A DNA stretch of 64,000 nucleotides from Deltaproteobacteria bacterium (GCA_016875195.1 VGRY01000006.1:27541-91540); one strand, 5' to 3'; positions 22,730 through 64,000 are shown, counted from the first letter of the stretch. Notes: generated by a model not told the origin, from the sequence alone. Translations and numbers: made by a program.

Positions 22730-22870
22730 TGCATTCCTCCTTTATGTCTTTTATGTGACTCATTTCGAGTGTAGGGGATATTCACTTCCTTGTCAAGAGT
22801 TCCCCCTTTAAAACTTCGTTGTCCTCGTTTCAGGAATATGTTAGGATTTTTTAAAAGATTGAATAAATTA

Positions 22871-22987
22871 CACGAATGATAACGAACTTCACGAATAAGG
22901 GGCACCATAACCCCTCCACACCTCCCGGTCTGGGGAGTTATAAGGGAAGGCTGGGTGGGGTTATTCGCTGACATTCGTGCCATTCGT
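22871..22987. repeat. Imperfect palindrome (E3), CACGAAT/ATTCGTG words flanking a (T)AACCCC/GGGGTTA core
   Basis: Left arm cacgaatgataacgaacttcacgaataa. Right arm ttattcgctgacattcgtgccattcgt. Inner arms ataacccctccacacctccc / gggaaggctgggtggggttat. Confidence 0.7.
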
Positions 22988-23016
22988 TTTTCTTGCGAAA
23001 GTCAGGGGGAACGCCA

Positions 23017-24241: not shown

Positions 24242-24317
24242 AGGTTAAGGCTAAGGCTGAGGTTTAGGTATAGAGTAAGTTCCTCATTTTTCTCAACCTT
24301 AACCTTAACCTCAACCT
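24242..24317. repeat. Imperfect palindrome (E4) of GGTTAAGG/CCTTAACC words
   Basis: aggttaaggctaaggctgaggtttagg ... ctcaaccttaaccttaacctcaacct. Confidence 0.7.
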
Positions 24318-30757: not shown

Positions 30758-30850
30758 GTCCATCGTCTATCGTTCCTCTAATAACCCCCCTACATCCCCC
30801 CTTAGCTTAAGGGGGGAATAGAGGGGGGTTACTTCGTCCATCGTCCATCT
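30758..30850. repeat. Imperfect palindrome (E5): AACCCCCC../..GGGGGGTT core flanked by TCCATCGTC direct words
   Basis: aataacccccctacatccccccttagc-ttaa-ggggggaatagaggggggttac. Confidence 0.7.
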
Positions 30851-32567: not shown

Positions 32568-32735
32568 CGGAAATTCCAAACACCAACATCCAACCAATAA
32601 CCCCACCCAGCCTCCCCTTATAACTCCCCCTTCCCCCTCTTACCTTAAGAGGGGGAAGATGGATGGGGGCGTTAGACTGGGGGGTGTGCCTGCCTGCCGG
32701 TAGGCAGGGAGGGGTTAAAATTGGTTATCGGAATT
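32568..32735. repeat. Composite imperfect palindrome (E6)
   Basis: ccaaccaataacccc ... ggggttaaaattggtt outer arms. Inner hairpins ccccctcttaccttaagaggggg and ctgcctgccggtaggcag. Confidence 0.65.
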
Positions 32736-39910: not shown

Positions 39911-39926
39911 AGCAAAAGAGTTGCCA
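39911..39926 (-). promoter_or_regulatory. sigma54 promoter TGGCAA-N5-TTGCT
   Basis: Minus strand tggcaactcttttgct with canonical GG-N10-GC spacing. TTGCT is followed by 11 nt, then ATG 39899. Confidence 0.7.
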
Positions 39927-40085: not shown

Positions 40086-42266
40086 TTACTCTGGAAGCTT
40101 CACTTCAGGACGGCATATTCTGAGTTTCTGCATCCTTGCTCTCAGGGTGCTTGGGTGGAGGTCCAGAATTTCCGCGGCTCCCTTTAGCCCATTGATGCGC
40201 CACCGGGTTTCAGAAAGAGTCTTAAGAATCTGGTCTCGTTCCGTCTCCGCAAGGGTCCTCAGCGTGGATGGTAATAGGGGAGAGGTATTTTCCAGTTTAT
40301 CCGATAGCTTTAATAGCGGCCCGGAGGACAGGATCACAGCCCGCTCGATGACATTCTCAAGTTCCCGGATGTTTCCGGGCCACGAGTAATCCTGGAGTGC
40401 CTTCATCGTTTCCTTCTGAATTGATGTGATCTGTTTGCCCAGTCCTTTGGAAAGTCTCTCGATGAAGGTCTGAACCAGCAGCGGGATGTCCTCTTTCCGC
40501 TGCCTGAGCGGGGGCACCGTAATGGGAAAGGTGTTGAGCCGATAGTACAGGTCTTGTCGAAAACGACCCTTTCGAACCTCTTCTTCAAGGTTTCGATTGG
40601 TCGTTGCTATAATTCGCACGTCCACTCTGACCGTATGGGAGGAACCCAGACGTTCAAACGCATTGTGCTGGATCACCCGGAGCAACTTGGCCTGGACTTC
40701 CAGTGGTAATTCTCCTATCTCGTCGAGGCAAAGGGTCGAACCATTGGCCACCTCGAACCGCCCCACCTGCCGGGTATCAGCTCCGGTAAATGCCCCCTTC
40801 TCCCGGCCGAACAGCTCGCTTTCAATTAAATTGGCCGGCAGGGCTGCGCAGTTTACGGTGACCAGCGGCCGGTCCTTACGAGGGCTCATCTGATGGATGG
40901 CGGAAGCGATCAACTCCTTTCCCGTACCGGTCTCGCCGAGGATGAGGACCGTCGTGTTCGTCGGAGCGACCTGCTCCGCCCGATGAAGGACGTATTTGAA
41001 GGCATTGCTTTGACCGATGATATGGCCGAACTGGTATTTCAACTTAACTTCTTGCCGGAAGTAAAGATTCTCAGTCTCCAGTTGGTCTTTTAATGTCTTG
41101 ATCTCAGAAAGAGCATTGCGCAGGGATTCCTCCACGCTCTTATGTTCGGTGATGTCGTGGAGAATCTCCATCTTCATAACATCCCCGCGTTCGTTGAGGA
41201 TCGGCGTGCTAAAAGCATCATAGGTCTTGCCGGTTTGTGGCGAATCCCATTCCCACTGGACAGACTTTCCGGCAAATACCTCTTGAATCTTGCACCAGGT
41301 ACAGGGTGTCGGGAGATCATGAAAATAGGCATGGCACTTGCGTCCATTGACCGGGCCATGTTCCTTTTCGATGACGGGGTTAATGTACTGTATGTCACGA
41401 TTTTGATTGGTGATATAGACGCCGTCATTCAGGGATTCCAGGATGCCCTTCAGTTTATTACGTTCCAGTTGCAGGATCTTTTCGGTCTGCCTGCTTCGCT
41501 CGATCTCCTTCTTCAGTTGCTCGTTGGCTCTCTGGAGTTCGACAGTGCGCTCATGGCCCCGCTGCTCCAGGTATTCGAGCAAAGATTCCCGTTCCTCTTC
41601 CATCCTCTTGTTGGTGAGGATGATCGCCATGATTTTACCGAATCCGGAAGCCATGTGTGCGTCGTCTTCGGTGAATCCCCCTGGTTTGTTTGCAAAGCCA
41701 AGCAAACCTATCCCCTCCCCATTGACAATCATTGGAGCAAACAGAACATTAAAAAGCGGCAAAGGTCCTTCCGGCATCAATCTCATACGACCGCCATTCG
41801 AGAAATCATTCTGAAAAACGGCCCGCCTCGTATGGAACACCGTGTCACACAACACCCGAATAGGCATGGCAAGGTTGCAATCGACCGGGTAAGGCAATCC
41901 CTCCGAGTCCAGAAAAAAGACTCCATTTTCTGTGCCCTTCTTATTCAAAAGAGCAACGTATCCTATTTTGGCTCCAAGCAGGTTCTTGCAAGAATCGAAT
42001 AGGGTTTGGGTTGCCTCTTTAAAATCGTTTTGCACCAAGACAGCCTTCGCCCTGCTCATCAACCCCGATATCTCCTCTTGAGACCTCTGAGATTGTCCAA
42101 GAGTCTTAGTAAGAGTTTGCTCTGCTCTGATACGCTGGGCAGCTCTCCCGAGCTGAATGGCATACGCTTTTATCACGTGTGGCTGCCTCTCTAGAAAGGG
42201 ACTCTCATTGTCTATTGCCTTTTCGCCCATATCATCAACCTCAATCGACTTACAATGATTCAGCAA
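40086..42266 (-). CDS. sigma54-dependent transcriptional activator (GAF + PAS + AAA+ + Fis HTH)
   Basis: GETGTGKE Walker A, GAFTGA sigma54-contact loop, C-terminal [22 protein letters not shown]. Confidence 0.9.
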
Positions 42267-43880: not shown

Positions 43881-43896
43881 TGGCACAAGGATTGCT
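43881..43896 (+). promoter_or_regulatory. sigma54 promoter TGGCAC-N5-TTGCT
   Basis: tggcacaaggattgct is a perfect consensus. 11 nt (ctctatactgc, no SD) lie between it and ATG 43908. Confidence 0.75.
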
Positions 43897-43907
43897 CTCT
43901 ATACTGC

Positions 43908-44594
43908 ATGAATGTTTTAATCATCAAACATGCGGAGATTGAAGGACCTGGATTGATTGGAGACCTTCTTGTGCAGGGGAAAATCCCCTATCAGATGATC
44001 GAACTCTATCTCAACACTCCCCTTCCCAAGCCTGAGGGTTTTTCACATATCGTCATCCTGGGAGGGCCGATGAATGTCTATGAGGAAGACCAATATCCTT
44101 TCCTTAGAAACGAAGACATTTTTATTAAAGAAGCGATTCAAAGGGGGAGAGCTATCCTGGGAATATGTCTGGGAGCCCAGTTGATCGCCAAAGCCTTGGG
44201 TGCAAAAGTTTTTAAAGCCCCTGTGAAAGAGATCGGATGGTATGAGGTCTCGTTGACCAGGGTAGGTTCTCAGGACCCTCTCTTCTCCAATCTTCCCAAA
44301 AAATTTCCTGTGTTCCAGTGGCATGAGGATACTTTTGAAATTCCAAGAGGAGGTCAATTGATCGCTACATCCAGCCCCGTGTCTCACCAAGCCTTCCGGT
44401 ATGGAGAGGCTGCTTACGGCCTTCAGTTTCATCTCGAAGTGACCAAAGAGATGATCCGTGACTGGTTGGAAGCTGATGAGGATGGGGATAAAAAACCCCA
44501 GATTTTAATTCAAACAGAGAGGAAGATCGAAAGCTATAAGCAAAGGGGAATGAACTTTTTTAGAACTTTTTTTGAGGCTCATGGACCCATTTAA
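43908..44594 (+). CDS. Class I glutamine amidotransferase (stand-alone GATase1, GuaA-N-like)
   Basis: MNVLIIKHAEIEGPG..ILGICLGAQL (nucleophile Cys)..FQWHED..LQFHLE. Confidence 0.85.
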   Translation: MNVLIIKHAEIEGPGLIGDLLVQGKIPYQMIELYLNTPLPKPEGFSHIVILGGPMNVYEEDQYPFLRNEDIFIKEAIQRGRAILGICLGAQLIAKALGAKVFKAPVKEIGWYEVSLTRVGSQDPLFSNLPKKFPVFQWHEDTFEIPRGGQLIATSSPVSHQAFRYGEAAYGLQFHLEVTKEMIRDWLEADEDGDKKPQILIQTERKIESYKQRGMNFFRTFFEAHGPI

Positions 44595-44625: not shown

Positions 44626-48879
<4,254 letters not shown>

Positions 48880-49893: not shown

Positions 49894-49922
49894 TTGACTT
49901 AAATAGGAATCTATATTAGAAA
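49894..49922 (+). promoter_or_regulatory. sigma70-type promoter TTGACT-N17-TAGAAA
   Basis: TTGACT 49894-49899 and TAGAAA 49917-49922. The predicted TSS at ~49929 abuts P1. Preceded by a perfect 13-nt tandem duplication at 49867-49892. Confidence 0.5.
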
Positions 49923-49929
49923 TATTAAA

Positions 49930-49983
49930 AATACGAAGCTGTATTGGGGACGAGGGCGTCAAGGTTTATTGACGCCTTTTTTT
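49930..49983 (+). promoter_or_regulatory. ANTAR-type antiterminator/terminator module (kinase operon leader)
   Basis: P1 AATAC-GAAGCT-GTATT at 49930-49945. P2 GAC-GAGGGC-GTC at 49949-49960. Terminator GGCGTCAA-ggttta-TTGACGCC at 49955-49976 plus T7. Confidence 0.75.
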
Positions 49984-50201
49984 ATCCGCCTACGCAGAAG
50001 ACCACCCCGCTCAGCGGGATGGATGAATGCGCATAATTGCCAAAGTAAGTTATGGGTTTATAAATTACTGCTTCGGCGGATTTCGCTGAAGGCGGATAAC
50101 CCTCCGAAGCCTTGGCGTAGGAGGGTATCTTTATGGAGATACTACGAGCTTTGCCCGTGGGGCTCCATCGGTAGCCACTGGCCCAGCGGGTCAACAGTAG
50201 A

Positions 50202-51929
50202 ATGGGATCAATTGGATTGAATAAAAAAAATTCAATTCCCGATGCGAAAGAGATCAATGCTTTGCTTGAGATCAGTAAAGCCATCGCTTCGGGTCTCTAT
50301 CTCGAGGATGTCCTTCGTCTGATCGTGACGGTGACCGCTAATGTGATGGACTCGAAGATCTGTTCTCTCTGGATCCTCGATGAAAGAGATCAGAGGTTGA
50401 AATTAAAAGCCACCCAGTCCATCAGCGAAGAATACCTCAGGGAGAGAAGCCTGGCTCTTGGAGAGGGAGTGGTCGGTCATGTCGCCCTTCATAATAAACC
50501 CATGGCCATTGCCAATGTCCTTCAAGACCCTCTCTATAAGGAGAAAGAGTTAGCAAAGAGGGAAGGATTGGTCTCCATGCTCAGCGTGCCAATGTGCATC
50601 AAGGAGAAGGTGATCGGGGTGATCAACTGTTATTCGTCCTCCCCTCGAACCTTTTCGAAGTCGGAAGAGGAGATGCTCTCAACCGTGGCCAATCAGGCTG
50701 CCATCTGCATCGAAAACTCCGGCCTCATGGAAACCCTCGATATCGATGAAATCCTGAGGCTGGTGCTGGAAGGGGTGATCAAGAACATCGGATTTGATCG
50801 GGCACGACTCTATCTGATCAACGAAAAGAGAAATGTCCTTGAATGCAAGATGGCTGTGGGAGTGGATGTGGAGAAGATCAAAGGGATTGAACTCCCTCTT
50901 ACCCTCGAAAGCAGTGTGGTATCGAGGTCTGTGATTGAAAAGAAACCCTATTTCATTCCCGATGCCAGGAATGACCAAAGGGTCAACCCTGTTTTAAAAG
51001 AGAAATTCAATCTTCACTCCCTCGTGGTCATTCCTCTCTTCACAAAAGAAAAAGTTCTCGGGGTGATTGCCGCAGACCATATCGAACCCGGAAGAAGGCT
51101 GACACAGGAAACGCTCGATTCGGTGATGACTTTTGCTCAACAGGCAGGATTGGCCATTCAAAATGCCTCCATGTATCAGGAGCTCAAGAATTTCAGCCAG
51201 CAGATGGAGGAGAAGATTGAAAAGACAACTGCGGACCTCAGAAAAACAGAGGCTCAGTTGATTCGGTCTGAAAAACTGGCAGCCCTGGGTCAACTGGCCG
51301 CAGGCATTGCCCATGAAATCCGAAATCCTCTGACCAGCATCAACATCCTCATTCATTCGATGAGGGAGAAATTGCCCTCTGAACATTCACAGCAGGAAGA
51401 CCTGAAAGTGATCGAAGAGGAAATCTATCGCATGGATGAGATCGTCAGCCAGTTTCTTCGATTCGCAAAACCCGCTTCTCCATTCCTTGAAAAAACAGAT
51501 CCCCTCTCTATTTTTGAGGAGATCCTTCAATTGCTCAGGCCTCAGATAGAAAGGCAACGCATCATGGTTGAAAAGGAGTTCCAAGCCCTTCCTATGATCC
51601 TGATCGACCGTGAGCAGATGAAACAGGCCATGCTCAATCTTCTGCTCAATGCCATCCAGGCCATGCCGAAAGGAGGTCATCTGATCCTTTCAGGTCGGAA
51701 TTCCGAAGATGGCCAATGGGTTTGTCTATCCGTCCAGGACTCCGGAATAGGAATCTCTTCAGAAGACATGGATAAACTGTTCGACCCCTTCTTCTCCACA
51801 AAAGAGGGGGGAATGGGCCTTGGCCTCTCCATCACCCATCGCATCATTGACCAGCATCATGGAAAGATTGAGGTGAATAGCATCCCTGAAAAGGGAACGC
51901 TTTTTACAGTTTGGTTACCTATTTCATGA
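50202..51929 (+). CDS. Sensor histidine kinase: GAF-GAF-HisKA-HATPase_c
   Basis: First GAF is 106/157 identical to the GAF of the ANTAR protein (hand alignment). H-box AHEIRNPLTSI. N/G boxes LLLNAIQAM and DSGIGI..GGMGLGL. Confidence 0.9.
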   Translation: MGSIGLNKKNSIPDAKEINALLEISKAIASGLYLEDVLRLIVTVTANVMDSKICSLWILDERDQRLKLKATQSISEEYLRERSLALGEGVVGHVALHNKPMAIANVLQDPLYKEKELAKREGLVSMLSVPMCIKEKVIGVINCYSSSPRTFSKSEEEMLSTVANQAAICIENSGLMETLDIDEILRLVLEGVIKNIGFDRARLYLINEKRNVLECKMAVGVDVEKIKGIELPLTLESSVVSRSVIEKKPYFIPDARNDQRVNPVLKEKFNLHSLVVIPLFTKEKVLGVIAADHIEPGRRLTQETLDSVMTFAQQAGLAIQNASMYQELKNFSQQMEEKIEKTTADLRKTEAQLIRSEKLAALGQLAAGIAHEIRNPLTSINILIHSMREKLPSEHSQQEDLKVIEEEIYRMDEIVSQFLRFAKPASPFLEKTDPLSIFEEILQLLRPQIERQRIMVEKEFQALPMILIDREQMKQAMLNLLLNAIQAMPKGGHLILSGRNSEDGQWVCLSVQDSGIGISSEDMDKLFDPFFSTKEGGMGLGLSITHRIIDQHHGKIEVNSIPEKGTLFTVWLPIS

Positions 51930-51974
51930 TGACCGATGAACCATCATCTGTTCATCGTATTGAAAGGGGCAAAC

Positions 51975-53414
51975 ATGCAGACGATCCTCATTGTTGACGA
52001 TGATAAATCGATCCGCTACTCTCTGAAAAGGATGCTGGAAGATCATTTTTCCATCCTCACTGCCCAGAATGGAGAAGAAGCCCTATCGCGCATGAAAGAA
52101 TCTTCCCCTGATCTGATCATCATGGATATCAAGATGCCTGGCCGGAACGGAATCGATGTGTTGAAGGAGATGAAGTTCCTTGACCCGAAGTCCCTCATCA
52201 TTCTGATGACCGCCTATGGCACTACAGAGACGGCGATCGAGGCGATGAAATTTGGGGCTTTCGATTACATCCTCAAACCTTTCCCGATTCCACAGATGAA
52301 AGAGTTGGTGCAAAAGGCGATCGCATTGCGGAAACTGATGAAGGAAGAAGTCTCCTATGCATCCGAACCGGATCAACAAAAAGAGGAAGAACAGATCATC
52401 GGTTCCGCTCCCAAGATGCAGGAGATCTATAAGGTGATCGGACAGGTGGCTCCCAGCGATGTCACTGTCCTCCTCAGAGGCGAGAGTGGAACGGGAAAGG
52501 AATTAGTGGCACGTGCAATCTATCACTACAGCCTCCGTTCGAGCTACCCGTTTCTTCCGGTCAATTGTGCTGCCATCCCGGATACCCTTCTCGAAAGTGA
52601 ACTCTTCGGCCATGAAAAAGGAGCTTTTACCGGTGCCATCTCCAGGCGCATCGGAAAACTGGAACAATGTCAGGGAGGGACCATTTTTCTGGATGAAATC
52701 GGTGACATGTCTCTCTCCACTCAGGCCAAACTCCTCAGAATCCTTCAGGAAAAGACTTTTGAAAGGCTTGGGGGAAGGGAAACGCTCAGGGTGGATATTC
52801 GATTTATCGTGGCAACGAATAAAGATCTTGAAGAGGCGATGGTCAGGGGGGAATTTCGTGAAGACCTCTATTACCGGCTCAATGTGGTCTCTATCAAGAT
52901 TCCTCCTTTAAGGGAAAGAAAAGAGGATATCCCGAACCTCACCTCTTACTTCTTAAAAAAATTCAATCGTGATTTAAAGCGGAAGGTCGCCGGGATCACT
53001 CCATCGGCAATGGGAAAAATCACCTCCTACGGATGGCCAGGAAATGTGAGACAATTGGAAAATGTTCTGAAAAGAGCCGTGCTCCTCTGCCAGGGAGAAT
53101 GGATTCTTGATGATCAACTCCTTCTTGATGTAGAAGAGAGACGAGAGGCTGCAGAGGTTCTGAAAGGAAAGACATTCGAGGGCCTACTCGATTCCCTCTT
53201 TATGGAACTCACGGAAACCTCCCCGGACCGGGAAGGTCTGGATATGGTTTCAGCCATTGAGAAAGGGTTGATCCTTCGTGCCCTTCAAAAGACGAACGGA
53301 AACCAGGTTCAGGCAGCTTCGCTTCTCGGAATCAATCGGGGCACGCTCCGGAGCAAAATGGAGCGGTATCACATTAGAAAAGAGGTGCTGGTTTCCGAAG
53401 AGGATAATGAATAA
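51975..53414 (+). CDS. NtrC-family sigma54-dependent response regulator (REC-AAA+-Fis HTH)
   Basis: MQTILIVDDD..DLIIMDIKMPG, GESGTGKE, GAFTGA, and C-terminal AASLLGINRGTLRSKM. ATG 51975 with SD aagggg is preferred over 51936. Confidence 0.9.
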   Translation: MQTILIVDDDKSIRYSLKRMLEDHFSILTAQNGEEALSRMKESSPDLIIMDIKMPGRNGIDVLKEMKFLDPKSLIILMTAYGTTETAIEAMKFGAFDYILKPFPIPQMKELVQKAIALRKLMKEEVSYASEPDQQKEEEQIIGSAPKMQEIYKVIGQVAPSDVTVLLRGESGTGKELVARAIYHYSLRSSYPFLPVNCAAIPDTLLESELFGHEKGAFTGAISRRIGKLEQCQGGTIFLDEIGDMSLSTQAKLLRILQEKTFERLGGRETLRVDIRFIVATNKDLEEAMVRGEFREDLYYRLNVVSIKIPPLRERKEDIPNLTSYFLKKFNRDLKRKVAGITPSAMGKITSYGWPGNVRQLENVLKRAVLLCQGEWILDDQLLLDVEERREAAEVLKGKTFEGLLDSLFMELTETSPDREGLDMVSAIEKGLILRALQKTNGNQVQAASLLGINRGTLRSKMERYHIRKEVLVSEEDNE

Positions 53415-53589
53415 ATTTCTCTGTTTCAAAAACAGATGATCACCTTTTTTAACCAACCTGATTAATTTTCATCATTTCCACCTAACCCTCTATCTTTGTC
53501 CAGGAGTTTCATCTCTTTCTTACTAAAATAATCCTATGTGATTACAAAAGGTTACAACATATTAACTTGCCTGCGTAGATTACGAACAA

Positions 53590-53605
53590 TGGCATATTAT
53601 TTGCT
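53590..53605 (+). promoter_or_regulatory. sigma54 promoter TGGCAT-N5-TTGCT upstream of glnA
   Basis: tggcatattatttgct with canonical spacing. The predicted TSS at ~53616 is 4 nt before P1. Confidence 0.75.
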
Positions 53606-53619
53606 ATTAATATTTCGTT

Positions 53620-53684
53620 AATACGATGGGGTATTAGAATGACAAGGGCGTCTTTCTTAAAACGGAGAGACGCCTTTTTATTTT
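53620..53684 (+). promoter_or_regulatory. ANTAR-type antiterminator/terminator module (glnA leader)
   Basis: P1 AATAC-GATGGG-GTATT at 53620-53635. P2 GAC-AAGGGC-GTC at 53641-53652. Terminator GGCGTCTTTC-ttaaaacg-GAGAGACGCC at 53647-53674 plus TTTTTATTTT. Confidence 0.75.
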
Positions 53685-53690
53685 AATAAA

Positions 53691-53780
53691 GCACGAATAC
53701 CACGAATGAATAACGAATTACGCGAATCAAAACATAGAAGGTTTTATTCGGTAAATTCGTTATTATTCGCCTAATTCGTA
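53691..53780. repeat. Imperfect palindrome (E8) of CACGAAT/ATTCGTG-type words inside the glnA 5' UTR
   Basis: gcacgaataccacgaatgaataacgaattacgcgaatc ... attcggtaaattcgttattattcgcctaattcgta. Confidence 0.7.
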
Positions 53781-53799
53781 ACTACACAAGGAGGAGAAG

Positions 53800-55122
53800 A
53801 TGGACAAAGCAACTGTATTGAAGATGGCGAAGGAGAATGATGTCAAATTTATCCGACTCTGGTTTACGGACATTCTGGGATTTCTGAAGGGGTTTTCGAT
53901 CACCATCCATGAACTCGAAGGGGCCCTTGAGGAAGGCATGGGGTTTGATGGTTCCTCGATCCAGGGATATGCTCGAATCGACGAAAGCGATATGATCGCT
54001 AAGCCTGACCCAAAGACCTTCCAGATCATCCCGTGGCGACCCAAAGAGAATGCAGTAGCCCGGATGTTTGCCGATGTCTATGAACCTGATGGAACCCCCT
54101 ACAAAGGCGACCCCAGATTCGTCTTAAAAAAGACTCTTAAGAAGGCGCATGACCTTGGATATACCTTATATGTCGGGCCTGAACTGGAATATTTCTACTT
54201 TAAAAGCAGTGATGGGGCGCCACAGATTCTTGATAAAGGAGGATATTTTGACCTCACCCCTCTGGATGTGGCAACCGAACTCCGGCGTGAAACCATTCTC
54301 ACACTTGAAGCCATGGGTATCAGGGTGGAATACAGCCATCACGAGGTAGCCCCGAGCCAGCATGAGATCGATCTCCGTTATGCCGAGGCTCTGAGCATGG
54401 CAGACAATGCCATGACCTATCGCCTCGTGGTGAAGGAGGTTGCATTGAGACACGGTGTCTACGCCACATTCATGCCCAAACCCATTTTTAAACAGAACGG
54501 AAGCGGGATGCACACCCATCAGTCCCTTTTCAAGGGTGACACGAATGTCTTCTTCGATCCGAAGGATGAATTCCATCTTTCAAAGATTGCCAAGTCTTAT
54601 ATGGCCGGAATTTTAAAACATTCAAAGGAAATCACCTCCATCACCTCCCAGTGGATCAACTCTTACAAAAGACTTGTCCCAGGATACGAAGCGCCGGTCT
54701 ATATCGCCTGGGCCCGGAGAAACCGTTCGGCACTGGTCCGGGTTCCCATGTATAAACCTGGAAAAGAGAAAGCCACACGGATGGAACTCCGCTCCCCCGA
54801 TCCGGCATGCAATCCCTATCTGGCCTTTGCTGTCATGTTGGCTGCAGGCCTGAAGGGAATCGAGAAGGGTTATGAACTTCCGTCTCCTGTTGAGGAGGAC
54901 ATTTTTGAGATGTCTGAAGAGGCACGGAAAAGACACGGAATCGAATCGCTTCCGGGAAGTCTATATGAAGCCATCCAGCTCACCGAACAGAGTGAACTGG
55001 TAAGAGAAACCCTTGGAGACCACATCTTCCATAAATTCATTGAAAACAAGAAGATCGAATGGGATCAGTACCGGACCCACATCTCCCAGTTCGAATTGGA
55101 GAAGTATCTGCCTATTCTTTAA
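53800..55122 (+). CDS. glnA: Glutamine synthetase type I, paralog 2 (complete, 440 aa)
   Basis: GMGFDGSSIQGY, GPELEYFYF, HHEVAPSQHEIDLRY, NGSGMHTHQSLF, RVPMYKPGKEKATRMELRSPD. SD aaggagga upstream. Confidence 0.95.
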   Translation: MDKATVLKMAKENDVKFIRLWFTDILGFLKGFSITIHELEGALEEGMGFDGSSIQGYARIDESDMIAKPDPKTFQIIPWRPKENAVARMFADVYEPDGTPYKGDPRFVLKKTLKKAHDLGYTLYVGPELEYFYFKSSDGAPQILDKGGYFDLTPLDVATELRRETILTLEAMGIRVEYSHHEVAPSQHEIDLRYAEALSMADNAMTYRLVVKEVALRHGVYATFMPKPIFKQNGSGMHTHQSLFKGDTNVFFDPKDEFHLSKIAKSYMAGILKHSKEITSITSQWINSYKRLVPGYEAPVYIAWARRNRSALVRVPMYKPGKEKATRMELRSPDPACNPYLAFAVMLAAGLKGIEKGYELPSPVEEDIFEMSEEARKRHGIESLPGSLYEAIQLTEQSELVRETLGDHIFHKFIENKKIEWDQYRTHISQFELEKYLPIL

Positions 55123-55130: not shown

Positions 55131-55338
55131 AACGGTTAGGGTAACGAGGCCTCTGCCTACCGGCCCCGGGCCCGACCGAGGGTGGGGCAGGCAGGCGCTT
55201 CGGTTAATTTTAAATTGACGTTTGTCGTTGTCGAAGCTCGTATCGATGCTCGACTGTCGAAACTGGAGGTTCGAATCCATTTTTGCCGGGTTTCGAGCAT
55301 CGAGCTTCCAGCTTCGATACCAGCGTCGTCACCGTTAA
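55131..55338. repeat. Two adjacent imperfect palindromes (E9)
   Basis: gcctctgcctacc..ggtggggcaggcaggc, then gtcgaagctcgtatcgatgctcga .. tcgagcatcgagcttccagcttcgatacc. Confidence 0.6.
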
Positions 55339-55429: not shown

Positions 55430-58400
55430 GTGAGCCAGAAGAGAGAAAAGTTAGCCTGGAGAAAGTATATTGAAGATTTTTTACAGCAAAGCCCGGACTT
55501 GAAGGCCATTTCCGACCCAGAGAAACTCGAATACTACCGGAATGACCTCAATGTGGACCTCCCGCCTTTGATCCGGGGCCTGATGCTCAAAAGCCTTCCC
55601 GACCTTATTCTCCAGCCTGCAACTGAAGAACACCTCCTCAATATCTTTGCATTTGCAAGCAAACATAAAATCCCTTTAACCGCCAGGGGCGCGGGAACAT
55701 GGGGTTACGGTGGAGCTGTCCCAACCCGCGGAGGAATTGTTATCGACCTTAGCTCGATGGATACGATTGAGGTTGATCCAGGAACCCTCCAAGTGACAGT
55801 TGGACCGGGAGCTCGTTTTGCCGATATCCACGCAGAACTTGAAAGACACGGCCTCACCTTACTTACCATGACATCCGGCAAGGGCGGAACCCTTGCAGGC
55901 TGGATGGCTACGGGTGGAATGGGATTCGGAACCTATTATCACGGACCAGTAAAGAATCAGATCATTTCCCTGCGGGTCATTACCCCTGATGGAAATGTTC
56001 TGAATCTAAAAGGGGATGATCCTGAGATCAACCATTTCCTCTCAACAGAAGGGCAGATGGGAATCATCGTAAAGGCCATATTGAAGTCTGGGCAAAAACC
56101 AGCCCATTGGTTTCCATTTGTCGTCCCTTTCGAAAAGGCATCTAACGCATATGCATTTGTCAGTAAACTTGACCGCCATCCATTTATCAAACCCCATGAC
56201 CTCATCGTCTATCATGCAGGATTGGCGCGCGTCCTCCAGTCAAAGTCAAATGGAAGATTGACTGTTGGAGATAAACATCTCGTTCTCATTGCCTTCGCTG
56301 ACCAGGAGCAGTCTCAATTGTTTAGACTCTACCTGGATGAGAGTGGAATTCAAATAGCAGATGAGGAATCAGCCTCTTTTCTCTGGGAGGAACGATTCCT
56401 TCCGATATCCATCAAGCACCTCGGCCCTTCTCTCTTAGCGACAGAGGTGATCCTGCCGCTTGATCAAGTGGGAGCCTATGAAGAAAAGATAAGTGAGTGG
56501 GGGAAGCGGTTGGGCTTAACTTTCTATTCCTCTTCCCATCTCATCAATCGAGATCAGGTCCTCTTTCTTGCCATGATCACCTCTGATCACAGGAAGGCCA
56601 TCTTCTACATCGACCTCATGCTCGTTCCGATGATGGTCAGGCTGGCCATTCAGTTTTACAGCGGAAAGCCCTACGGTCTGGGAATATGGAACACGCCTTT
56701 TCTCCGTGACCTCTTTTCAAAAGAAGAAGTGACAAAACTGGTTCAATATAAGAAGAAGGTAGACCCTCATGGAATCCTCAATCCGGGAAAGTTTTTTACT
56801 GTATCTGGAAAACTGGGTCCTCTTCAGAAGATGATCTTTCATTCGGATATCTTCAACCTCGAACTCACCGCGATGAACTGGCTTCTCTTCAAGCTCTTCT
56901 CCATCATTCCTGAGAAGACCCTTAGGCAGCAACTGCCAGCTTCACCCCTGGGGCTTGAAGGGGTTTCAAATGAGGTCAACTCCTGCGCCCAGTGCGGAAA
57001 TTGTGTCTCCCGATGTCCAGTTTATCGGGCAACAAGAGATGAAACCTTCTCAGCGAGAGGCAAACTTCTGACGATCAAGAGGGCAATGGAGACGAAGAAG
57101 ATCGAGCTGTCAAAGGTCTTACCTCTCTACTTCTGTCTCCACTGCGGCCGTTGTGATGAAGAGTGCCAGGTCAACATCAAACATCGCCCACTTTACAGCA
57201 ACCTCGAAGCCCATTTCTCCAGTACCATCGACTTCCCGATCCAGGAGGTGACCCGCTTCATCCAGGAAGTTGAAAATAGTCCGGAGTTCTACCGGTTCCT
57301 CGACGTGATCAGAACGGGGTTCGACCAGAAAGTTCGTGAACAGCGGCAGACGTTCCCCAGGTACCATGTGGCGATTGACGACGAACACTGTATCCATTGT
57401 GGGACCTGCGTCGATGCCTGCATCTACGGTGTTCGAAAACGTGACGAGAAAGATCCACGTTGCGTGGTGATTGCCGATGAAGCGCTCTGCCGGGGCTGCG
57501 GTTCCTGTCTTGAGCGTTGCCCACAGGTCGCCAAAGGAATCCCGGCAACCACTGTGGAACTCCACCCGGATTACCTGAGCATGCACGACCCGTACTGGAC
57601 GAGTGAAGCCATCACCCGTATCGACCTCGAAGCCACCACCGGAAAGATCCCTGTTTCCGGGACTGGACAGGGAGATCCCCATCGCGGTTACGGCAATGAC
57701 GGGATTCGCTTCGGCCACTTTCATATTGTCGGCCCTGCTCAGAACCTCCTCTATGAAAGTTCTGAGGATGCCATCTCGATCCTGATTGGACAAAGGCCAA
57801 AATACCTGACCTTTGACGGGGAAACTCTCAAAACCCCGCCTCCACGGTTGATCCATTTAAAGACACCCCTGATCCTCGATATCATGCCCATGGATGGAGG
57901 AGAAGATCTGTTGGAGCCCATGTTCGAGGCAGTCCAGCAAACAGGAACCCGACTGACGCTCCGCCTCGAAGAGTTGGAACGTTATGAGTCGCGGATTGCC
58001 GATCGGATGAAGAATCTAATATTGAGATTAACTTCTGAAGACTTGAAAAGCCTTCTCAATGGAAAGGCATGGCCGGAGGTGTTGAAAAACAATCCTCCTG
58101 ATCTGGTCGAAATCGAGCTGGAGGGAGAAGCCTTAAAAAAGGCAGAGAAAATTTCAGCGCTCCTCCCGAATTCGGTTCTCTGTGCTGTCATTAAAATTGA
58201 AAAGGGATTTGTTGATGCAGAGCTTCGGCCCACCTCTGCCCTGAAGAAAAAACTGGAGTCCCTCTTCGAATCGCCTTTTGATGCTATCTGCCTCACTTCT
58301 GATTATGATTCAGAAAAAGGGTACTACCCCACTACCGATGCTGTTCCTGCTGTTCACCGTTTTCTCGTAGAAAAGAAAATTCGCCATCGCTTTTCTATCC

Positions 58401-61400
58401 TGGCAGCTGGTGGAATCCGTTCTGCAGCCGATTCTCAGAAAACGATCCAGCGCGGTGCAAATGGGATCAAGATCGATTGGCCGGTCCTTCTGGCTGCCAA
58501 TCCTCAAGCACGACAGAAATTTTCACAGGGAGAGCGCCTCCATCTTCTCCATGATTCCTCCTCCCTAACCAAACGGATCACCCACCTTATTCGGGTCTGG
58601 AATGTCCAGATCATTGAAGTCTTGGGCGCTTCAGGGTTTAAGGATATTAAAAAGACGGTTGGAGAGGAAAACCGTCTCCTCATCTTCGATGACCTCGAAG
58701 AAAGGGTCTATGACATTTTCAAAAACAAAGATTGCATTGAAAGAAACCGTGTGACTAATCTGGCACGTCTCCAGAGGGAAGGCAAAGGTGATGGCTGGAA
58801 ATACAGTCAATTGAAGAATTTGATCAAACCTACTCAATCCCCTCACCGGTTCTATAGCTGCAGCCTGAAGTCTTCCTGTTACCAGATTTTCGACCGCGAT
58901 TATGTCTGGCCAGCCTCTCTGATTGCTTCGGTGGGCCATATGGCAAGTGGAAATCCAGAAACGCTTCAACTTGGCCACACAGAGGAGCGCGGGAATTTAG
59001 GGGATGGTTTTGATTTCATACAGGTCCTCTTTCAACGCAACCCCGATACCCTTTCGGAAGATCTCATTGACCATGTCTCCACCAGTCTTCAGATCAATCC
59101 TGAATTGAGGCTAAAAGCCCCCTTTATTGGAGCAGGAATGTCAGTGGGTTCAATCGGACCTGGAACCTGGCGCGCCCGGGTCCTGGCCACTCGTGCCCTT
59201 GGGACACAGATGGACACGGGTGAAGGAGGATATCCCACTTTCTATATCCTCGATGAAAAGTGGAACTCTATTGATTTGACCGACGCACAGGTTCTCCTGC
59301 TTGGCCAGATCATGGAGCCCCGGAAATTGATTCCCATGGCTGAGTTGATCAGAAAGGTCCAGGAAGAATTGGCAGAATCTCCTGAAATTGAAAAAATTCT
59401 ACAGGTTCTCCAGAAATATCCGGCCTCCAGGACTGTTCAGTTTGTCCCAATCGTCTTGCACGAAGACGAACCTTATGTCTCCACCCAGCTCAAGACAGGT
59501 CTCTTTGGGGTAACCAAGGAGACGATTCGGAAGGCACGTCGTGTGGTAATCGCGTACAGCCAGGGAGCAAAACAGGGTGTGGGCGGTCATCTATTAGGCC
59601 GAAAAGTGTTTGGTCTGGTCTCAAGGCTCCGCGGCGTGGCAGAAGGGGTCAGCCTCATCTCCCCCTTCCCCTTCCATAATTGCTACTCCATTGAAGATGT
59701 GAAGGCCTTCATCGATGCAGTACGCATGATCAACCCGCAGGCCTCGATCTGCATCAAGGTCTCCCCATCGCCTGATATCGAGTTTATCGTCTCCGGGCTC
59801 GCCCGGATTGCCAAGGACAACAGGATGGCCATTGAGGTCTGGCTCGATGGGCCTCGCGGAGGGACAGGTGCAGCCCCAGACATCATCAAGGGTCAGATGG
59901 GAATGCACATCGAATATGCCATCCCCATCTGTCATGAGAAATTGATTAGTGATGGACTGAGAGATAACGTCGTTTTCCTGGGAAGCGGTGGATTTCGCAC
60001 CTGGGGAGATATGGTGAAAGGCATAGCCATGGGGTTGGATGGCATTGTCCTCGGTACCTCTGATCTGGTTGCTATTGGCTGTGTTCGTGACCGCAATTGC
60101 GAGTCAGGATGTCGAAGTGGAATCTCAACGATTGAACCCAAAATGCAATTGCTAAGAGATGTCGGGATCAACACCCAGCAGTTGATCAATTTCCGTGCCA
60201 TCTTACAGGCTCAGGTTGCAAGGGCTGTCGCGGGCCTTGGATTGGAAGACATCCGTGAACTTCGGGGCCGATATGATCTGATTCAATGGCCTGTGCTCGA
60301 AGAAAGGGTCCAGGAGCGTCGTCGCCGTCGTTCTGAGATCTCAATCAAGGAACCGTCACGAATCTATCCCTCTGATTCATTCCCTCATTATACATTGAGC
60401 GAATCAGCACCTCCTCCTTCGGATTGTGGTGTGGCAGCGATCGTCTCCAACCATTTCATCCCGAGCCATGTGATGGACCTGATGCTCGACCGGATGGCAA
60501 ACCGTGGAATGGACGGTGTGGGCATATGGAAAGGAGGATGTTACCCGGCTCATATCGACCACTATGCCTTCCATGTCCTGATTAAAGGGACTCTCCAGCC
60601 TCAGGTTGAAGAAAAATTCTCGTTAGCCCATCCGAACCTGAATTCTGAAGAGGTCCGGCAAATGGCCCGGAGAAAAATTCTCTCTAACCGACGTCTCCTC
60701 ATGCGAGAGATTCTGGAGAAATATTTCTATGGTCTTCAACTCGATTCATTCGATGGGGATCTGGAGAAATGGAGAATTCCGTATAAACGCGATGAAAACG
60801 GAAGGGAGAGAGATTTTCTATATTATGGAGAAAGAGATCCCGGAGATGTTTTCCGGTTCTTTGTCCGCGTCCTGCCGCCCGAACTCTTTCGCTTCATTGA
60901 AGATGAGTTACTCAATGATCCCATTTGGCCCCCACGACAGGTCCGTTACCAACATCTGACCGTTCAAAATTATAGGGAGAATAAGGAATTTCTGCGGGAA
61001 GCTGAGGACGAATATATCTATCGACTCTCACGTAAGATCACTCGTGAGAATTATGTAGAAGCTCACCAGAAGAAGGCATCTGTACTCTCCTGTGGTAAAA
61101 ACTCCGGCTGCTGGAAGACGGATGGTCAACATATCCCATGGGAAACTCCGGATGCTCCGGTCAATGTGATTCATAGACGGCTGGCCACGGGATCTGTGGT
61201 GGATCAGATGAACTCCCATCCTTTTGCCGAACTGCACACAGCATTGACGCATAATGGAGAGACGACGAATTATCGCACCATGTTGAATCGGGTTTCCCAA
61301 ACGAACTTAACACCGCTGGCTCAAACCGACACCGCAGTAGCTTCCCTGAAGCTCCATCTGCTCAGTCAGTATCTCCACTATCCCTTTGATGCCCTGGTAG

Positions 61401-63025
61401 AATCCTTCTCTCCCACCACAGGTTGGAGCTTGACCCAATTCTCCTCTGAGGTCAGAGAGCGTTTTGAGCGCGTGCAGGAGGTTGAGCTGGAAAGCGCTCC
61501 AGATGGCCCCTACCAATACCTCTGTGGCCGGATTGACCCTTATCAACGGGTGATTGAACGGCTCGATGTCATCGATCCTTCCCTGCTCAGGCCTAATGTG
61601 GCCATGCTTTATGATGACGGAGAAAACTTCGCGTCCATCATCTGTTCCGAGAAACAGGGCTGTGATGCAGGAATGCAGGAACTTCACCGGTTGGGATTGA
61701 CCAAAAGTACGGTTGCTCCAGTCACTTTAACCGTTAACCCCGGGATGGTAAGTAGAGTATTTTACGATGAGAACGGGAAGATTTCAGGCTATGAGGTCCT
61801 CGATAAATTTGGAAAGAAACTGGACATCCCTCATGGAGCTTTCCCCTCTTCAGAACCTATCTTCTCTATAGGAGATTCTGAAAAAATAGATTCAGGATCC
61901 AATCCTTCAGCTTTCATCCGTGAACGACTGCCTCAATGGGGGTTTGGTGAGTTTAAAAAGGAACTGGATAAAATTTCAGAAAATTTCCCTTCCCAGCAGG
62001 TCATTGAGGAACTTGCCCGGATCCACGATCATCTGCCAGGCTGGGATACCGGAAATAAGGATAGGGGAGCTTTAATTCATATCGTGCGGGACCAGATCGA
62101 TTCATGTCTCGACCGTGGGAAAGAAAAAGACGGAATGTCCCGCGTCACCATATCCAATGCTAAAACATTGAATCCGCCCAAAGATCCTGCTCAGGTGCTG
62201 GTAGTGGACGCCAAAGGATTTCAGCCCGAAGGCATTGAACCGTTCCGGGTTCTCAATCCTTTCCTCAACCATGCCCACCGAATGGGATGGCGTAAGTTTA
62301 TTGTCTATCGAGTAGAGGGGCAGCGGGGTATCGGTATGGGCATAGGTTCCGGTGATACCTCAGATACGACGATAGATGTCTTTGGAAGCCCTGGCGAGTA
62401 TTGCGGGGCCTTTAATATGGGGGCTTTGGTCCGTGTCCATGGACACGCACAGAATTTTACCGGCATGGTCATGCATTCCGGCACACTCGAAATCCACGGA
62501 GATGTGGGCAAGGTGATAGGATACTCTGCAAAAGGCGGCACGTTTAACATCTTAGGAAATGTCGTTGATCGAGGCTGGGTCTGTGCGGTCAGTGACCCGC
62601 GAGGTCCAGGATTGCAGGTCAATGTCGTAGGGACGGCCTATGAACATCTCTGTCAGGCGTTGATGGGGGGATCGGTCATCATGCTGGGACTCTTTCGGAG
62701 CAATGACGGAATTCTTCATAGGATGGATTCCCCATATCATGGAGCCAAGATCCTTGCCGGTGCATCTGCCGGGGAGATCATCTTCTACGATCCCGCGAAA
62801 AGATTGGAAGAGGCTCAATACGGAAGTGGTAGAGTAAATCCCATTGACCAGAAAAAATGGGAGGAAATTATGAACCGCCTGATGAACCTTGAAAAGATTT
62901 TTGGTCTCGGGATTCTCAGAGAGAACAACCATCTCACAGTCTGTATTGACAAGCAGCGACAGGATATGACTCCTGATGATTTTATATGGATTGCCCCAAA
63001 GGGGGAACTGGCAGGCTATCATTAA
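55430..63025 (+). CDS. Giant fusion protein: FAD-linked oxidase (GlcD-like) + GlcF-like and ferredoxin-type Fe-S + divergent TIM barrel + GltS FMN domain + class II (Ntn) glutamine amidotransferase + GXGXG domain
   Basis: GTG start with SD aaggtgagg. Residues ~60-470: FAD_binding_4/oxidase-C (ARGAGTWGYGG..VDPHGILNPGKFF). ~518-590: CAQCGNCVSRCP..CLHCGRCDEEC. ~650-700: CIHCGTCVDAC..CRGCGSCLERCP. ~1180-1640: GAGMSVGSIGPG..DTGEGGYP..SQGAKQGVGGHLLGRKV..SPFPFHNCYSIEDV..DGPRGGTGAAP..GC..C..GC. From Cys1666: CGVAAIV..HNGETTNYR. ~2255-2480: GSPGEYCGAFN..GHAQNFTGMVMHSGTLEIHGDVG. Confidence 0.85.
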   Translation: MSQKREKLAWRKYIEDFLQQSPDLKAISDPEKLEYYRNDLNVDLPPLIRGLMLKSLPDLILQPATEEHLLNIFAFASKHKIPLTARGAGTWGYGGAVPTRGGIVIDLSSMDTIEVDPGTLQVTVGPGARFADIHAELERHGLTLLTMTSGKGGTLAGWMATGGMGFGTYYHGPVKNQIISLRVITPDGNVLNLKGDDPEINHFLSTEGQMGIIVKAILKSGQKPAHWFPFVVPFEKASNAYAFVSKLDRHPFIKPHDLIVYHAGLARVLQSKSNGRLTVGDKHLVLIAFADQEQSQLFRLYLDESGIQIADEESASFLWEERFLPISIKHLGPSLLATEVILPLDQVGAYEEKISEWGKRLGLTFYSSSHLINRDQVLFLAMITSDHRKAIFYIDLMLVPMMVRLAIQFYSGKPYGLGIWNTPFLRDLFSKEEVTKLVQYKKKVDPHGILNPGKFFTVSGKLGPLQKMIFHSDIFNLELTAMNWLLFKLFSIIPEKTLRQQLPASPLGLEGVSNEVNSCAQCGNCVSRCPVYRATRDETFSARGKLLTIKRAMETKKIELSKVLPLYFCLHCGRCDEECQVNIKHRPLYSNLEAHFSSTIDFPIQEVTRFIQEVENSPEFYRFLDVIRTGFDQKVREQRQTFPRYHVAIDDEHCIHCGTCVDACIYGVRKRDEKDPRCVVIADEALCRGCGSCLERCPQVAKGIPATTVELHPDYLSMHDPYWTSEAITRIDLEATTGKIPVSGTGQGDPHRGYGNDGIRFGHFHIVGPAQNLLYESSEDAISILIGQRPKYLTFDGETLKTPPPRLIHLKTPLILDIMPMDGGEDLLEPMFEAVQQTGTRLTLRLEELERYESRIADRMKNLILRLTSEDLKSLLNGKAWPEVLKNNPPDLVEIELEGEALKKAEKISALLPNSVLCAVIKIEKGFVDAELRPTSALKKKLESLFESPFDAICLTSDYDSEKGYYPTTDAVPAVHRFLVEKKIRHRFSILAAGGIRSAADSQKTIQRGANGIKIDWPVLLAANPQARQKFSQGERLHLLHDSSSLTKRITHLIRVWNVQIIEVLGASGFKDIKKTVGEENRLLIFDDLEERVYDIFKNKDCIERNRVTNLARLQREGKGDGWKYSQLKNLIKPTQSPHRFYSCSLKSSCYQIFDRDYVWPASLIASVGHMASGNPETLQLGHTEERGNLGDGFDFIQVLFQRNPDTLSEDLIDHVSTSLQINPELRLKAPFIGAGMSVGSIGPGTWRARVLATRALGTQMDTGEGGYPTFYILDEKWNSIDLTDAQVLLLGQIMEPRKLIPMAELIRKVQEELAESPEIEKILQVLQKYPASRTVQFVPIVLHEDEPYVSTQLKTGLFGVTKETIRKARRVVIAYSQGAKQGVGGHLLGRKVFGLVSRLRGVAEGVSLISPFPFHNCYSIEDVKAFIDAVRMINPQASICIKVSPSPDIEFIVSGLARIAKDNRMAIEVWLDGPRGGTGAAPDIIKGQMGMHIEYAIPICHEKLISDGLRDNVVFLGSGGFRTWGDMVKGIAMGLDGIVLGTSDLVAIGCVRDRNCESGCRSGISTIEPKMQLLRDVGINTQQLINFRAILQAQVARAVAGLGLEDIRELRGRYDLIQWPVLEERVQERRRRRSEISIKEPSRIYPSDSFPHYTLSESAPPPSDCGVAAIVSNHFIPSHVMDLMLDRMANRGMDGVGIWKGGCYPAHIDHYAFHVLIKGTLQPQVEEKFSLAHPNLNSEEVRQMARRKILSNRRLLMREILEKYFYGLQLDSFDGDLEKWRIPYKRDENGRERDFLYYGERDPGDVFRFFVRVLPPELFRFIEDELLNDPIWPPRQVRYQHLTVQNYRENKEFLREAEDEYIYRLSRKITRENYVEAHQKKASVLSCGKNSGCWKTDGQHIPWETPDAPVNVIHRRLATGSVVDQMNSHPFAELHTALTHNGETTNYRTMLNRVSQTNLTPLAQTDTAVASLKLHLLSQYLHYPFDALVESFSPTTGWSLTQFSSEVRERFERVQEVELESAPDGPYQYLCGRIDPYQRVIERLDVIDPSLLRPNVAMLYDDGENFASIICSEKQGCDAGMQELHRLGLTKSTVAPVTLTVNPGMVSRVFYDENGKISGYEVLDKFGKKLDIPHGAFPSSEPIFSIGDSEKIDSGSNPSAFIRERLPQWGFGEFKKELDKISENFPSQQVIEELARIHDHLPGWDTGNKDRGALIHIVRDQIDSCLDRGKEKDGMSRVTISNAKTLNPPKDPAQVLVVDAKGFQPEGIEPFRVLNPFLNHAHRMGWRKFIVYRVEGQRGIGMGIGSGDTSDTTIDVFGSPGEYCGAFNMGALVRVHGHAQNFTGMVMHSGTLEIHGDVGKVIGYSAKGGTFNILGNVVDRGWVCAVSDPRGPGLQVNVVGTAYEHLCQALMGGSVIMLGLFRSNDGILHRMDSPYHGAKILAGASAGEIIFYDPAKRLEEAQYGSGRVNPIDQKKWEEIMNRLMNLEKIFGLGILRENNHLTVCIDKQRQDMTPDDFIWIAPKGELAGYH

Positions 63026-63028
63026 AAA

Positions 63029-63340
63029 CATTGCAAAGTTAGCAATTAGCAATGAGCAGTTAGCATTAAAAGACTTAAAATCACTGCTAATTTTGAAATG
63101 TTAGTTTTGCAATTTGCATTGATTTTTTAAAAGGATTGGGCGGGGGGCGAATCTGGCATCGGCGGACACATCCCCGGGGAAAAGGCGTAGGGGCAATTCA
63201 TGAATTGCCCCTACCTCATGACGAGAATGCTTCCCAAGGGCATGGATGCCCTCTCCCCTGCCCCTTTTTAGTCTGATAGTCCAATGGTCACTTAGTCATA
63301 TAGTCCTGACTATTTGACTAACGACTACCTGACTAAAAAC
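63029..63340. repeat. Cluster of imperfect and perfect palindromes (E10)
   Basis: TTAGCA/TGCTAA-word palindrome at 63029-63121. Perfect 28-nt palindrome gtaggggcaattcatgaattgcccctac at 63187-63214. gggcatggatgccc at 63238-63251. TAGTCA/TGACTA-word palindrome at 63270-63340. Confidence 0.7.
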
Positions 63341-63949: not shown

Positions 63950-64000
63950 TTAACCCCTCCCTGCCTCCCCTTAATTTAAGGGGAGGTGAGGTGGGGTTAA
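63950..64000. repeat. Imperfect palindrome (E11) of AACCCC/GGGGTT words at the window end
   Basis: ttaacccctccctgcctcccctta-attt-aaggggaggtgaggtggggttaa. Confidence 0.6.

Follow-up and report, generated by a model that had tools for sequence, protein, structure and literature searches.

In the nasF operon of Klebsiella oxytoca, an NtrC/sigma-54 promoter is combined with antitermination by NasR (PMC12591593; PMC3369931). In Geobacter sulfurreducens, transcription of the nif genes is initiated by GnfM and RpoN, and the ANTAR regulator GnfR prevents its premature termination (PMC2995071); GnfM also activates the operon that encodes GnfR, a response regulator of the receiver-ANTAR type (Ueki and Lovley 2010, PMC2995071). 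ANTAR targets, frequently as tandem copies, have also been reported in front of the genes for glutamine and glutamate synthase, and GAF-ANTAR proteins were called uncharacterised in the same survey (Ramesh et al. 2012, PMC3369931). Literature searches found no later functional study of GAF-ANTAR proteins. The 5′ region of glnA paralog 2 (glnA2) in a 64,000-nucleotide (nt) stretch from a Deltaproteobacteria bacterium (GCA_016875195.1 VGRY01000006.1:27541-91540; 48% G+C; attributable by its relatives to an uncultured, Syntrophaceae-like lineage of the Thermodesulfobacteriota; hereafter the window, with positions counted from its first letter) is a well-supported further example of this dual design, already known from nasF and the Geobacter nif genes. 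The core reading, in which the glnA2 leader follows a sigma-54 promoter and carries an ANTAR antiterminator/terminator switch, is given a probability of about 0.8.

The glnA2 leader sits, by annotation of the window, within a nitrogen-assimilation gene cluster and comprises the following features.

53421-53475, + strand: candidate upstream activator region, with a dyad CTGTTTCAAAAACAG at 53421-53435 and a block that aligns with the TTGTCTTTTTTTAAACAG..CATCA conserved in relatives
53541-53555, + strand: integration host factor (IHF)-like site ATTACAAAAGGTTAC with core CAA-N4-TTR, between the upstream block and the promoter
53590-53605, + strand: sigma-54 -24/-12 promoter TGGCAT-N5-TTGCT, TGGCATATTATTTGCT, from pattern match and conservation
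53620-53635, + strand: ANTAR hairpin P1, AAUAC-GAUGGG-GUAUU (AUAC/GUAU core at 53621-53634 plus an A-U pair), with hexaloop GAUGGG
53641-53652, + strand: ANTAR hairpin P2, GAC-AAGGGC-GUC, a 3-bp stem with a hexaloop
53647-53674, + strand: intrinsic terminator with a 10-11 bp stem GGCGUCUUUC/GAGAGACGCC, then U5-A-U4 to 53684, from terminator scan and folding
53693-53779, + strand: imperfect palindrome of 87 nt with arms of four ACGAAT and four ATTCGT at ~10-nt spacing, from folding and motif scan
53790-53796, + strand: Shine-Dalgarno sequence GGAGGAG, unpaired in the predicted fold, with the ATG at 53800
53800-55122, + strand: glnA2, type I glutamine synthetase of 440 amino acids (Pfam Gln-synt_N/C; TIGR00653 545 bits versus a cut-off of 429)

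The comparison set consists of 160 fetched loci around glnA relatives, about 20 of which encode GlnA 83-94% identical to that of glnA2. Relatives' loci compared with the window carry the labels L001-L009, L081-L092, and L161-L169. Two covariance models of the P1 and P2 modules were used. R1 was trained on the glnA leaders of L001-L003, L005, L006, and L009, and its scan of the window was run with filters off; R2 is a leave-one-family-out test built from 13 modules, none of which comes from a glnA leader.

The -24/-12 element TGGCAT-N5-TTGCT, on which the initial annotation had based its promoter call, is present at 53590-53605, and the spacing of its GG and GC dinucleotides fits TGGCAC-N5-TTGCW. 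The window has three matches to the strict pattern TGGCAY-N5-TTGCW, whereas 0.10 are expected from shuffles, and none of 100 shuffles reaches three. In close orthologues with enough upstream sequence, YGGCAY-N5-YTGCW is found at the equivalent place (L001-L003, L005-L009, L081-L091). The sole exception is L092, where the sigma-54 element is replaced by a sigma-70-like TTGACA-N17-TAACAT and the ANTAR modules are kept; because of this exchange, promoter and attenuator are separable in evolution. Promoter, P1, P2, and terminator are shared by at least 14 distinct orthologous glnA leaders, and the distance from the promoter end to P1 is 13-19 nt in orthologous leaders having P1. A sigma-70 promoter overlapping the sigma-54 site (TGcTATTAA after the -12) was rejected, as it is not kept in either L006 or L009, and no + strand site emerges from the scan.

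Further upstream, an alignment of eight orthologous promoter regions shows that, regardless of which gene precedes it, the block TTGTCTTTTTTTAAACAG..CATCA is kept ~115-170 nt 5′ of the -24 element, and this block is a candidate activator-binding site. The dyad CTGTTTCAAAAACAG of the window is perfect and adjoins a partly diverged copy of the block. The element at 53541-53555, a putative IHF site by the consensus WATCAANNNNTTR, has a CAA-N4-TTR core that is kept in six of the eight aligned orthologues, ~35-50 nt upstream of the promoter. Judged by sequence, the block, the IHF-like site, and the -24/-12 element form the classic layout of an enhancer-dependent promoter.

From this promoter, transcription is predicted to start near 53616, ~5 nt before P1, and the leader as a whole folds far better than its shuffles (z = -7.1). 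P1 and P2 and the overlapping terminator with its U-run (53647-53684) lie where the initial annotation had placed them. The overlap is specific: the terminator stem takes its first six bases from P2, namely GGC from the loop and GUC from the 3′ strand, and in every module examined the stem begins at this loop GGC. Loop consensus sequences, drawn from 28 regex-selected modules of which two are probably spurious, are RAWGNN for P1 and RARGGC for P2. G occupies position 4 in 25 of 28 P1 loops and in 27 of 28 P2 loops, while position 1 holds either A or G (18 A and 9 G in P1; 19 A and 8 G in P2). The P1 loop of the glnA2 leader carries G1 and G4, and its P2 loop carries A1 and G4. As far as these modules indicate, the canonical A1 is relaxed in this clade.

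The terminator is better supported by pairing than the two hairpins. In a set of 17 modules, pairing over the first eight pairs of the stem reaches 98.5%, a figure in which part of the pairing arises by construction from the pseudo-alignment of per-sequence folds; slid controls reach 41-55%, and three of the eight pairs have changed on both sides. The stems of P1 and P2 are almost invariant and thus gain no support from covariation; their support comes from conservation, context, and the terminator. R2 finds the leader at 53618-53656 with 24.6 bits (E = 7e-4), the next match in the window scoring 9.7 bits, and R1 finds the glnA leaders of L081, L082, L084-L088, L091, and L092, on which it was not trained (E = 9e-8 to 3e-4). 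The ANTAR reading of the leader is strongly backed by orthologue conservation, matches to both models, and sister modules in the window. The elements, their geometry, and their conservation are read directly from the sequence and its comparison with relatives.

In five relatives (L005, L006, L081, L082, and L086), the P2/terminator 5′ half is partly duplicated in tandem (GAC-GARGGC-GUC...GAC-AAAGGC-GUC). These leaders have one P1, then two P2-like hairpins, and then a single complete terminator.

The R1 scan recovers seven modules in the window, three of them outside the training set, with the next best match at E = 1.7. In addition to the glnA2 leader, the modules and the only ANTAR gene of the window are as follows.

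12030-12177, + strand: three tandem ANTAR modules (starts 12030, 12083, and 12141) in the leader of a glutamate-synthase-like gene, from R1 and R2
14068-14183, + strand: two tandem ANTAR modules with terminators (starts 14068 and 14123) in the leader of gdh (14213-15460), from R1 and R2
49894-49985, + strand: leader of the kinase/activator operon, with TTGACT-N17-TAGAAA, an ANTAR module at 49928-49964, and a terminator
1088-1792, + strand: GAF-ANTAR protein (Pfam ANTAR PF03861, 1.1e-22, plus GAF)

These other three ANTAR leaders of the window have sigma-70-like promoters (TTGACN-N17-TANAAN) that end 8-11 nt before P1, and the start-to-P1 geometry of glnA2 is similar to that of these sigma-70-driven leaders. 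R1 also matches glutamate-synthase-like and gdh leaders in L165-L167 and L169. In the window, amtB has a sigma-54 site only. An ANTAR module in the leader of glnA paralog 1 (943-1087, minus strand) was ruled out, as neither R1 nor R2 matches there. In the glutamate-synthase-like leader, the mechanically assigned open reading frame (ORF) start, TTG at 12141, runs through the third module; the likeliest true start is the ATG at 12225, preceded by AAGGAGGA. Between the ANTAR terminator and the start codon of the kinase, ~215 nt (49985-50201) are G+C-rich and strongly folding (z = -2.9). This segment has no Rfam match, the kinase leader has only chance-level ones (E ≤ 10), and nothing similar to the segment is present in the kinase loci of five relatives, which are without this leader.

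The GAF-ANTAR protein encoded at 1088-1792 is a likely candidate, on sequence and context, for the antiterminator of these leaders. Among Protein Data Bank sequences, its ANTAR domain resembles those of Rv1626, EutV, NasR, and AmiR, and its GAF domain that of PtsP; the closest GAF domains are the nitrogen-sensing ones of PtsP (enzyme I-Ntr) and NifA, which bind glutamine and/or 2-oxoglutarate. The ORF has no receiver domain, and the protein recurs at 82-92% identity in more than 120 protein clusters (metagenomes and metagenome-assembled genomes of Thermodesulfobacteriota/Deltaproteobacteria). Its gene is divergent from glnA paralog 1 in the window, L161-L163, and L169. In L169, the order is glnA1 (divergent), GAF-ANTAR, the glutamate-synthase-like gene with its ANTAR modules, GAF-kinase, activator, and nadE, and in L164 the GAF-ANTAR gene stands in one gene row with the kinase and activator. 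No sigma-54 pattern was found upstream of the GAF-ANTAR gene at 1088.

The candidate activator and its partner are encoded between the kinase leader and glnA2.

50202-51929, + strand: double-GAF histidine kinase, partner of the activator (Pfam; its N-terminal GAF matches the PtsP GAF)
51936-53414, + strand: NtrC-like sigma-54 activator with REC, AAA+ (sigma-54 interaction) with GAFTGA at residue 229, and HTH_8

The activator scores 494 bits against TIGR01818, under the cut-off of 558.6, and its stop lies 176 nt before the -24 element of the glnA2 promoter, a proximity that the initial annotation had pointed out. The adjacency stands for the window but is lineage-specific: most relatives have other genes upstream, the activator gene expected upstream of glnA was not found there in L001-L009, and among relatives only L084 has it.

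In the proposed mechanism, glnA2 would be initiated at the enhancer-dependent sigma-54 promoter, most likely turned on by an NtrC-like activator for which the adjoining upstream gene is the obvious candidate. Over its first ~70 nt, the transcript would constitute an ANTAR attenuator. By default, the terminator at 53647-53684 would form and transcription would stop. An active ANTAR dimer, likely of the one-component GAF-ANTAR protein, would bind the hexaloops of P1 and P2 and hold the 5′ half of the terminator inside P2, upon which polymerase would read through into glnA2 and probably also into the glutamate-synthase fusion gene behind it. Which proteins serve as activator and antiterminator, which signals they sense, and in which direction regulation runs are inferred.

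Several observations weigh against this account. The P1 loop of the glnA2 leader opens with G rather than the canonical A, as it does in 9 of 28 related modules, and the near-invariance of the P1 and P2 stems leaves them without covariation. No Rfam family reaches its gathering threshold anywhere in the window, and the leader has only chance-level matches at E ≤ 10. With regard to the promoter, the window copy of the upstream block is partly diverged and lacks the TGT..ACA ends of its relatives, rpoN is absent among the ORFs of the window, and the assignment of the activator to the promoter has to be inferred because its gene adjoins glnA only in the window and L084. As for the antiterminator, R1 finds no match near the GAF-ANTAR genes of L161-L164, and other ANTAR proteins may be encoded elsewhere in the genome. 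Lastly, the placement of gdh and glnA under one positive switch is physiologically unexpected.

The initial annotation had proposed two independent nitrogen checkpoints on the glnA2 transcript. Both checkpoints are supported, namely the sigma-54 promoter and the ANTAR switch; their independence is not, since an ANTAR module also precedes the activator operon. In most relatives, the kinase/activator pair closely follows the ANTAR-controlled glutamate-synthase-like or gdh genes, and in L165-L169 it lies between those genes and nadE. In the window and L084, the pair has been relocated to a place directly 5′ of glnA2, and in the window the glutamate-synthase-like gene has stayed together with gdh and nadE at 12-17 kb. 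Because the pair lies 3′ of ANTAR-controlled genes in relatives and has an ANTAR leader of its own in the window, ANTAR control of the activator looks ancestral. The module before the kinase/activator operon and the gene order of the relatives likewise suggest that the initiation and antitermination inputs are probably coupled rather than independent. Since ANTAR modules also gate the kinase/activator operon, gdh, and the glutamate-synthase-like gene, glnA2 would stand at the end of a feed-forward arrangement in which ANTAR controls the activator and both control glnA2. The whole explanation, including the regulators and the feed-forward order, is judged nearly as probable as its core.

A broader proposal is tentative and on balance doubtful. 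It holds that the one-component GAF-ANTAR protein is the master sensor of ammonium assimilation in this clade, in a coherent feed-forward loop with the NtrC-like pair. Its GAF domain would directly sense 2-oxoglutarate or glutamine, antitermination would gate the glutamate-synthase-like gene, gdh, and the GAF-kinase/NtrC-like pair, and the hierarchy would be the reverse of the Geobacter order. As a separate part of the proposal, hairpins that stabilize the read-through mRNA would have a selected landing position between the attenuator and the ribosome-binding site.

That position is occupied in the window by the palindrome at 53693-53779, which the initial annotation had combined with the promoter and the ANTAR module in one 5′ region. 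The palindrome itself is real: it folds as one hairpin of -28.6 kcal/mol (z = -5.7), which none of 200 shuffles matches, and it stands alone in the predicted leader fold. Among the alternatives to the proposed arrangement, the one that survives best, although improbable, is that the palindrome is a specific third element of glnA2, either an operator array with ACGAAT in helical phase or a nitrogen-responsive RNA element acting on translation or stability. Eight CGAAT/ATTCG motifs at ~10-nt spacing form the densest such cluster in the window, hairpin potential is kept in the diverged homologue of L001, which still folds weakly (z = -2.2), and relatives often have some palindrome at the same position. 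However, the palindrome is confined to the window and, in degenerate form, its closest relative; it is absent from nine relatives' leaders (L004, L005, L083, L084, L086-L088, L091, and L092) and is replaced in seven (L002, L003, L006, L081, L082, L085, and L089) by an unrelated GC-rich palindrome, CCCCTCACC...GGGAGAGGGG. The otherwise near-identical leaders of L081 and L082 (~2400-2500) differ by a ~20-nt indel inside this GC-rich palindrome, L082 having an extra cgcctgcctgccggtaggcagg core. Moreover, the predicted fold leaves the ribosome-binding site free, so that the Shine-Dalgarno sequence is not sequestered.

Hairpins with a similar build occupy at least seven other intergenic regions of the window (among them 1871-1995, 22868-22990, 24242-24311, 45937-46015, ~55220-55330, and 63030-63113), with repeat units that differ by locus (CGAAA/CGAAT, ACGAAT, AAGGCT, GTTCGGA, TCGAGC, and TTAGCAA). 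The one at 22868-22990, between transporter genes, has the same ACGAAT arms around a GC-rich core. A multi-copy element of shared sequence was rejected, as BLAST of the palindrome against the window and 80 loci gave no long second copy and the architecture alone is shared. Also rejected was an NrpR, TnrA/GlnR, or NtrC-type operator, for which no match to the consensus sequences was seen by eye. From these comparisons, the palindrome is concluded to be an intergenic hairpin of a generic, repeat-armed type that does not belong to the conserved switch; its role would be at most that of a generic structural or stabilizing element of the read-through mRNA. The repeated occupation of this leader position by different hairpins could reflect tolerance of insertions or a mild benefit such as mRNA stabilization. 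Like repetitive extragenic palindromic (REP) sequences, such hairpins are stable and imperfect, lie in intergenic or untranslated DNA, are numerous per genome, and vary between close strains. They differ from REP sequences in that the arms of each are built from its own tandem repeat (ACGAAT, GTTCGGA, TTAGCAA, AAGGCT, and others) with no shared consensus, and to our knowledge, with no literature search aimed at the point, no described family has this repeat-armed build. Separately, a GCCTGCCTACCGG motif similar to the cgcctgcctgccggtaggcagg core occurs at 55150-55200, and GC-rich TAACCCC...GGGGTTA-type palindromes are present at 30782-30831, 32625-32663, and 63950-64000.

Somewhat less probable still is that the hairpin and U-run at 53647-53684 form the terminator of the kinase/activator operon, or the end of a small sigma-54-dependent RNA, with the promoter of glnA2 downstream, perhaps in the palindrome region. 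A strong, extended terminator downstream of the activator gene, an A-rich tract 5′ of the stem that pairs with the U-run as in bidirectional terminators, and the 115 nt from the U-run to the ATG in the window would all fit such an arrangement. The hairpin, however, lies 230 nt past the activator stop and 3′ of a conserved sigma-54 promoter, and the same promoter/P1/P2/terminator unit precedes glnA in relatives where the upstream gene is a divergent transporter gene. In L084 and L086-L088, the U-run is only ~15-35 nt from the ribosome-binding site, which leaves no room for a promoter after the terminator, and the scan gives no + strand sigma-70-like site in 53000-54200. The least probable alternative is that the likeness to ANTAR targets is coincidental and the leader works as a ligand-sensing riboswitch or as an attenuator of another type (leader peptide, T-box, or other protein), for although the invariant stems leave the structure unproven by covariation and the P1 loop departs from A1, no Rfam family emerges even at E ≤ 10, the pre-terminator leader is only ~30 nt and has no ORF or extra conserved structure, the architecture is that of ANTAR targets (two hexaloops, G4, P2 overlapping the terminator), tandem copies stand upstream of nitrogen genes as in ANTAR regulons (PMC3369931), and the window holds an ANTAR gene linked to module-bearing leaders.

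The remaining genes of the cluster that bear on the glnA2 locus are listed below.

~43.9-45.9 kb: glutamine amidotransferase and amtB
46357-48879: glnD
55430-63025: glutamate-synthase fusion protein, a single ORF of 2531 residues

The fusion ORF lies directly 3′ of glnA2, a pairing kept in L001-L003, L005, and L006, and contains FAD_binding_4/FAD-oxidase_C, 4Fe-4S dicluster, Glu_synthase, GATase_6, and GXGXG domains. The designation of glnA2 as a second paralog in the initial annotation is borne out by another glnA on the minus strand (paralog 1, 4-942), 68% identical to glnA2 and cut off by the start of the window. A second sigma-54 activator, of the GAF-PAS type, is encoded at 40086-42266 on the minus strand, and both activators of the window carry GAFTGA. 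Just downstream of the GAF-PAS activator gene is a sigma-54-like site TGGCAACTCTTTTGCT (39911-39926, minus strand), inside the 5′ end of a listed ABM-domain ORF whose true start may be further downstream.

The amidotransferase-amtB genes are preceded by a sigma-54 promoter TGGCACAAGGATTGCT (43881-43910), conserved in L167 at 9742-9773. With just 11-13 nt from the -12 element to the ATG, the transcript would have little or no leader. The TTG listed as a start at 43845 is probably wrong.

If confirmed, the arrangement at glnA2 would extend two-step control by NtrC/sigma-54 and ANTAR from nitrate assimilation and nitrogenase to glutamine synthetase, and would do so in a large group of anaerobes, most of them uncultured. 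A highly conserved GAF-ANTAR protein is also put forward as a candidate one-component sensor of nitrogen, and the consensus AUAC-N6-GUAU ... GAC-RRRGGC-GUC plus terminator could aid the calling of gene starts in these genomes.

Three described systems define how the glnA2 leader is to be placed. The module resembles the dual-hexaloop targets of Ramesh et al. in its two short hexaloop hairpins, conserved G4, P2 overlapping the terminator, and tandem modules, and it differs from them in that loop position 1 is A or G and the stems are almost invariant (AUAC/GUAU and GAC/GUC). With nasF, it shares a -24/-12 enhancer-dependent promoter and, behind it, a leader terminator open to override by an ANTAR protein, with two serial inputs on one nitrogen-assimilation transcript. 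NasR, however, is a NIT-ANTAR protein with a nitrate assimilation target, whereas here the candidate is a GAF-ANTAR protein and the target is glnA; compared with nasF, an ANTAR module of the window also precedes the kinase/activator operon. The Geobacter system likewise comes from the former Deltaproteobacteria and joins RpoN promoters activated by an NtrC-type regulator to ANTAR antitermination in the same leaders, and the GnfR site CAGGCAANGGCGCC (PMC2995071) resembles P2 in the form GAC-AAAGGC-GUC. GnfR has a receiver domain and a partner kinase, whereas the ANTAR protein of the window has a GAF domain and no receiver. The gnfR gene is under a sigma-54 activator, whereas the GAF-ANTAR gene has no upstream sigma-54 site. 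With an ANTAR module upstream of the kinase/activator operon, the hierarchy of the Geobacter system appears to be reversed.

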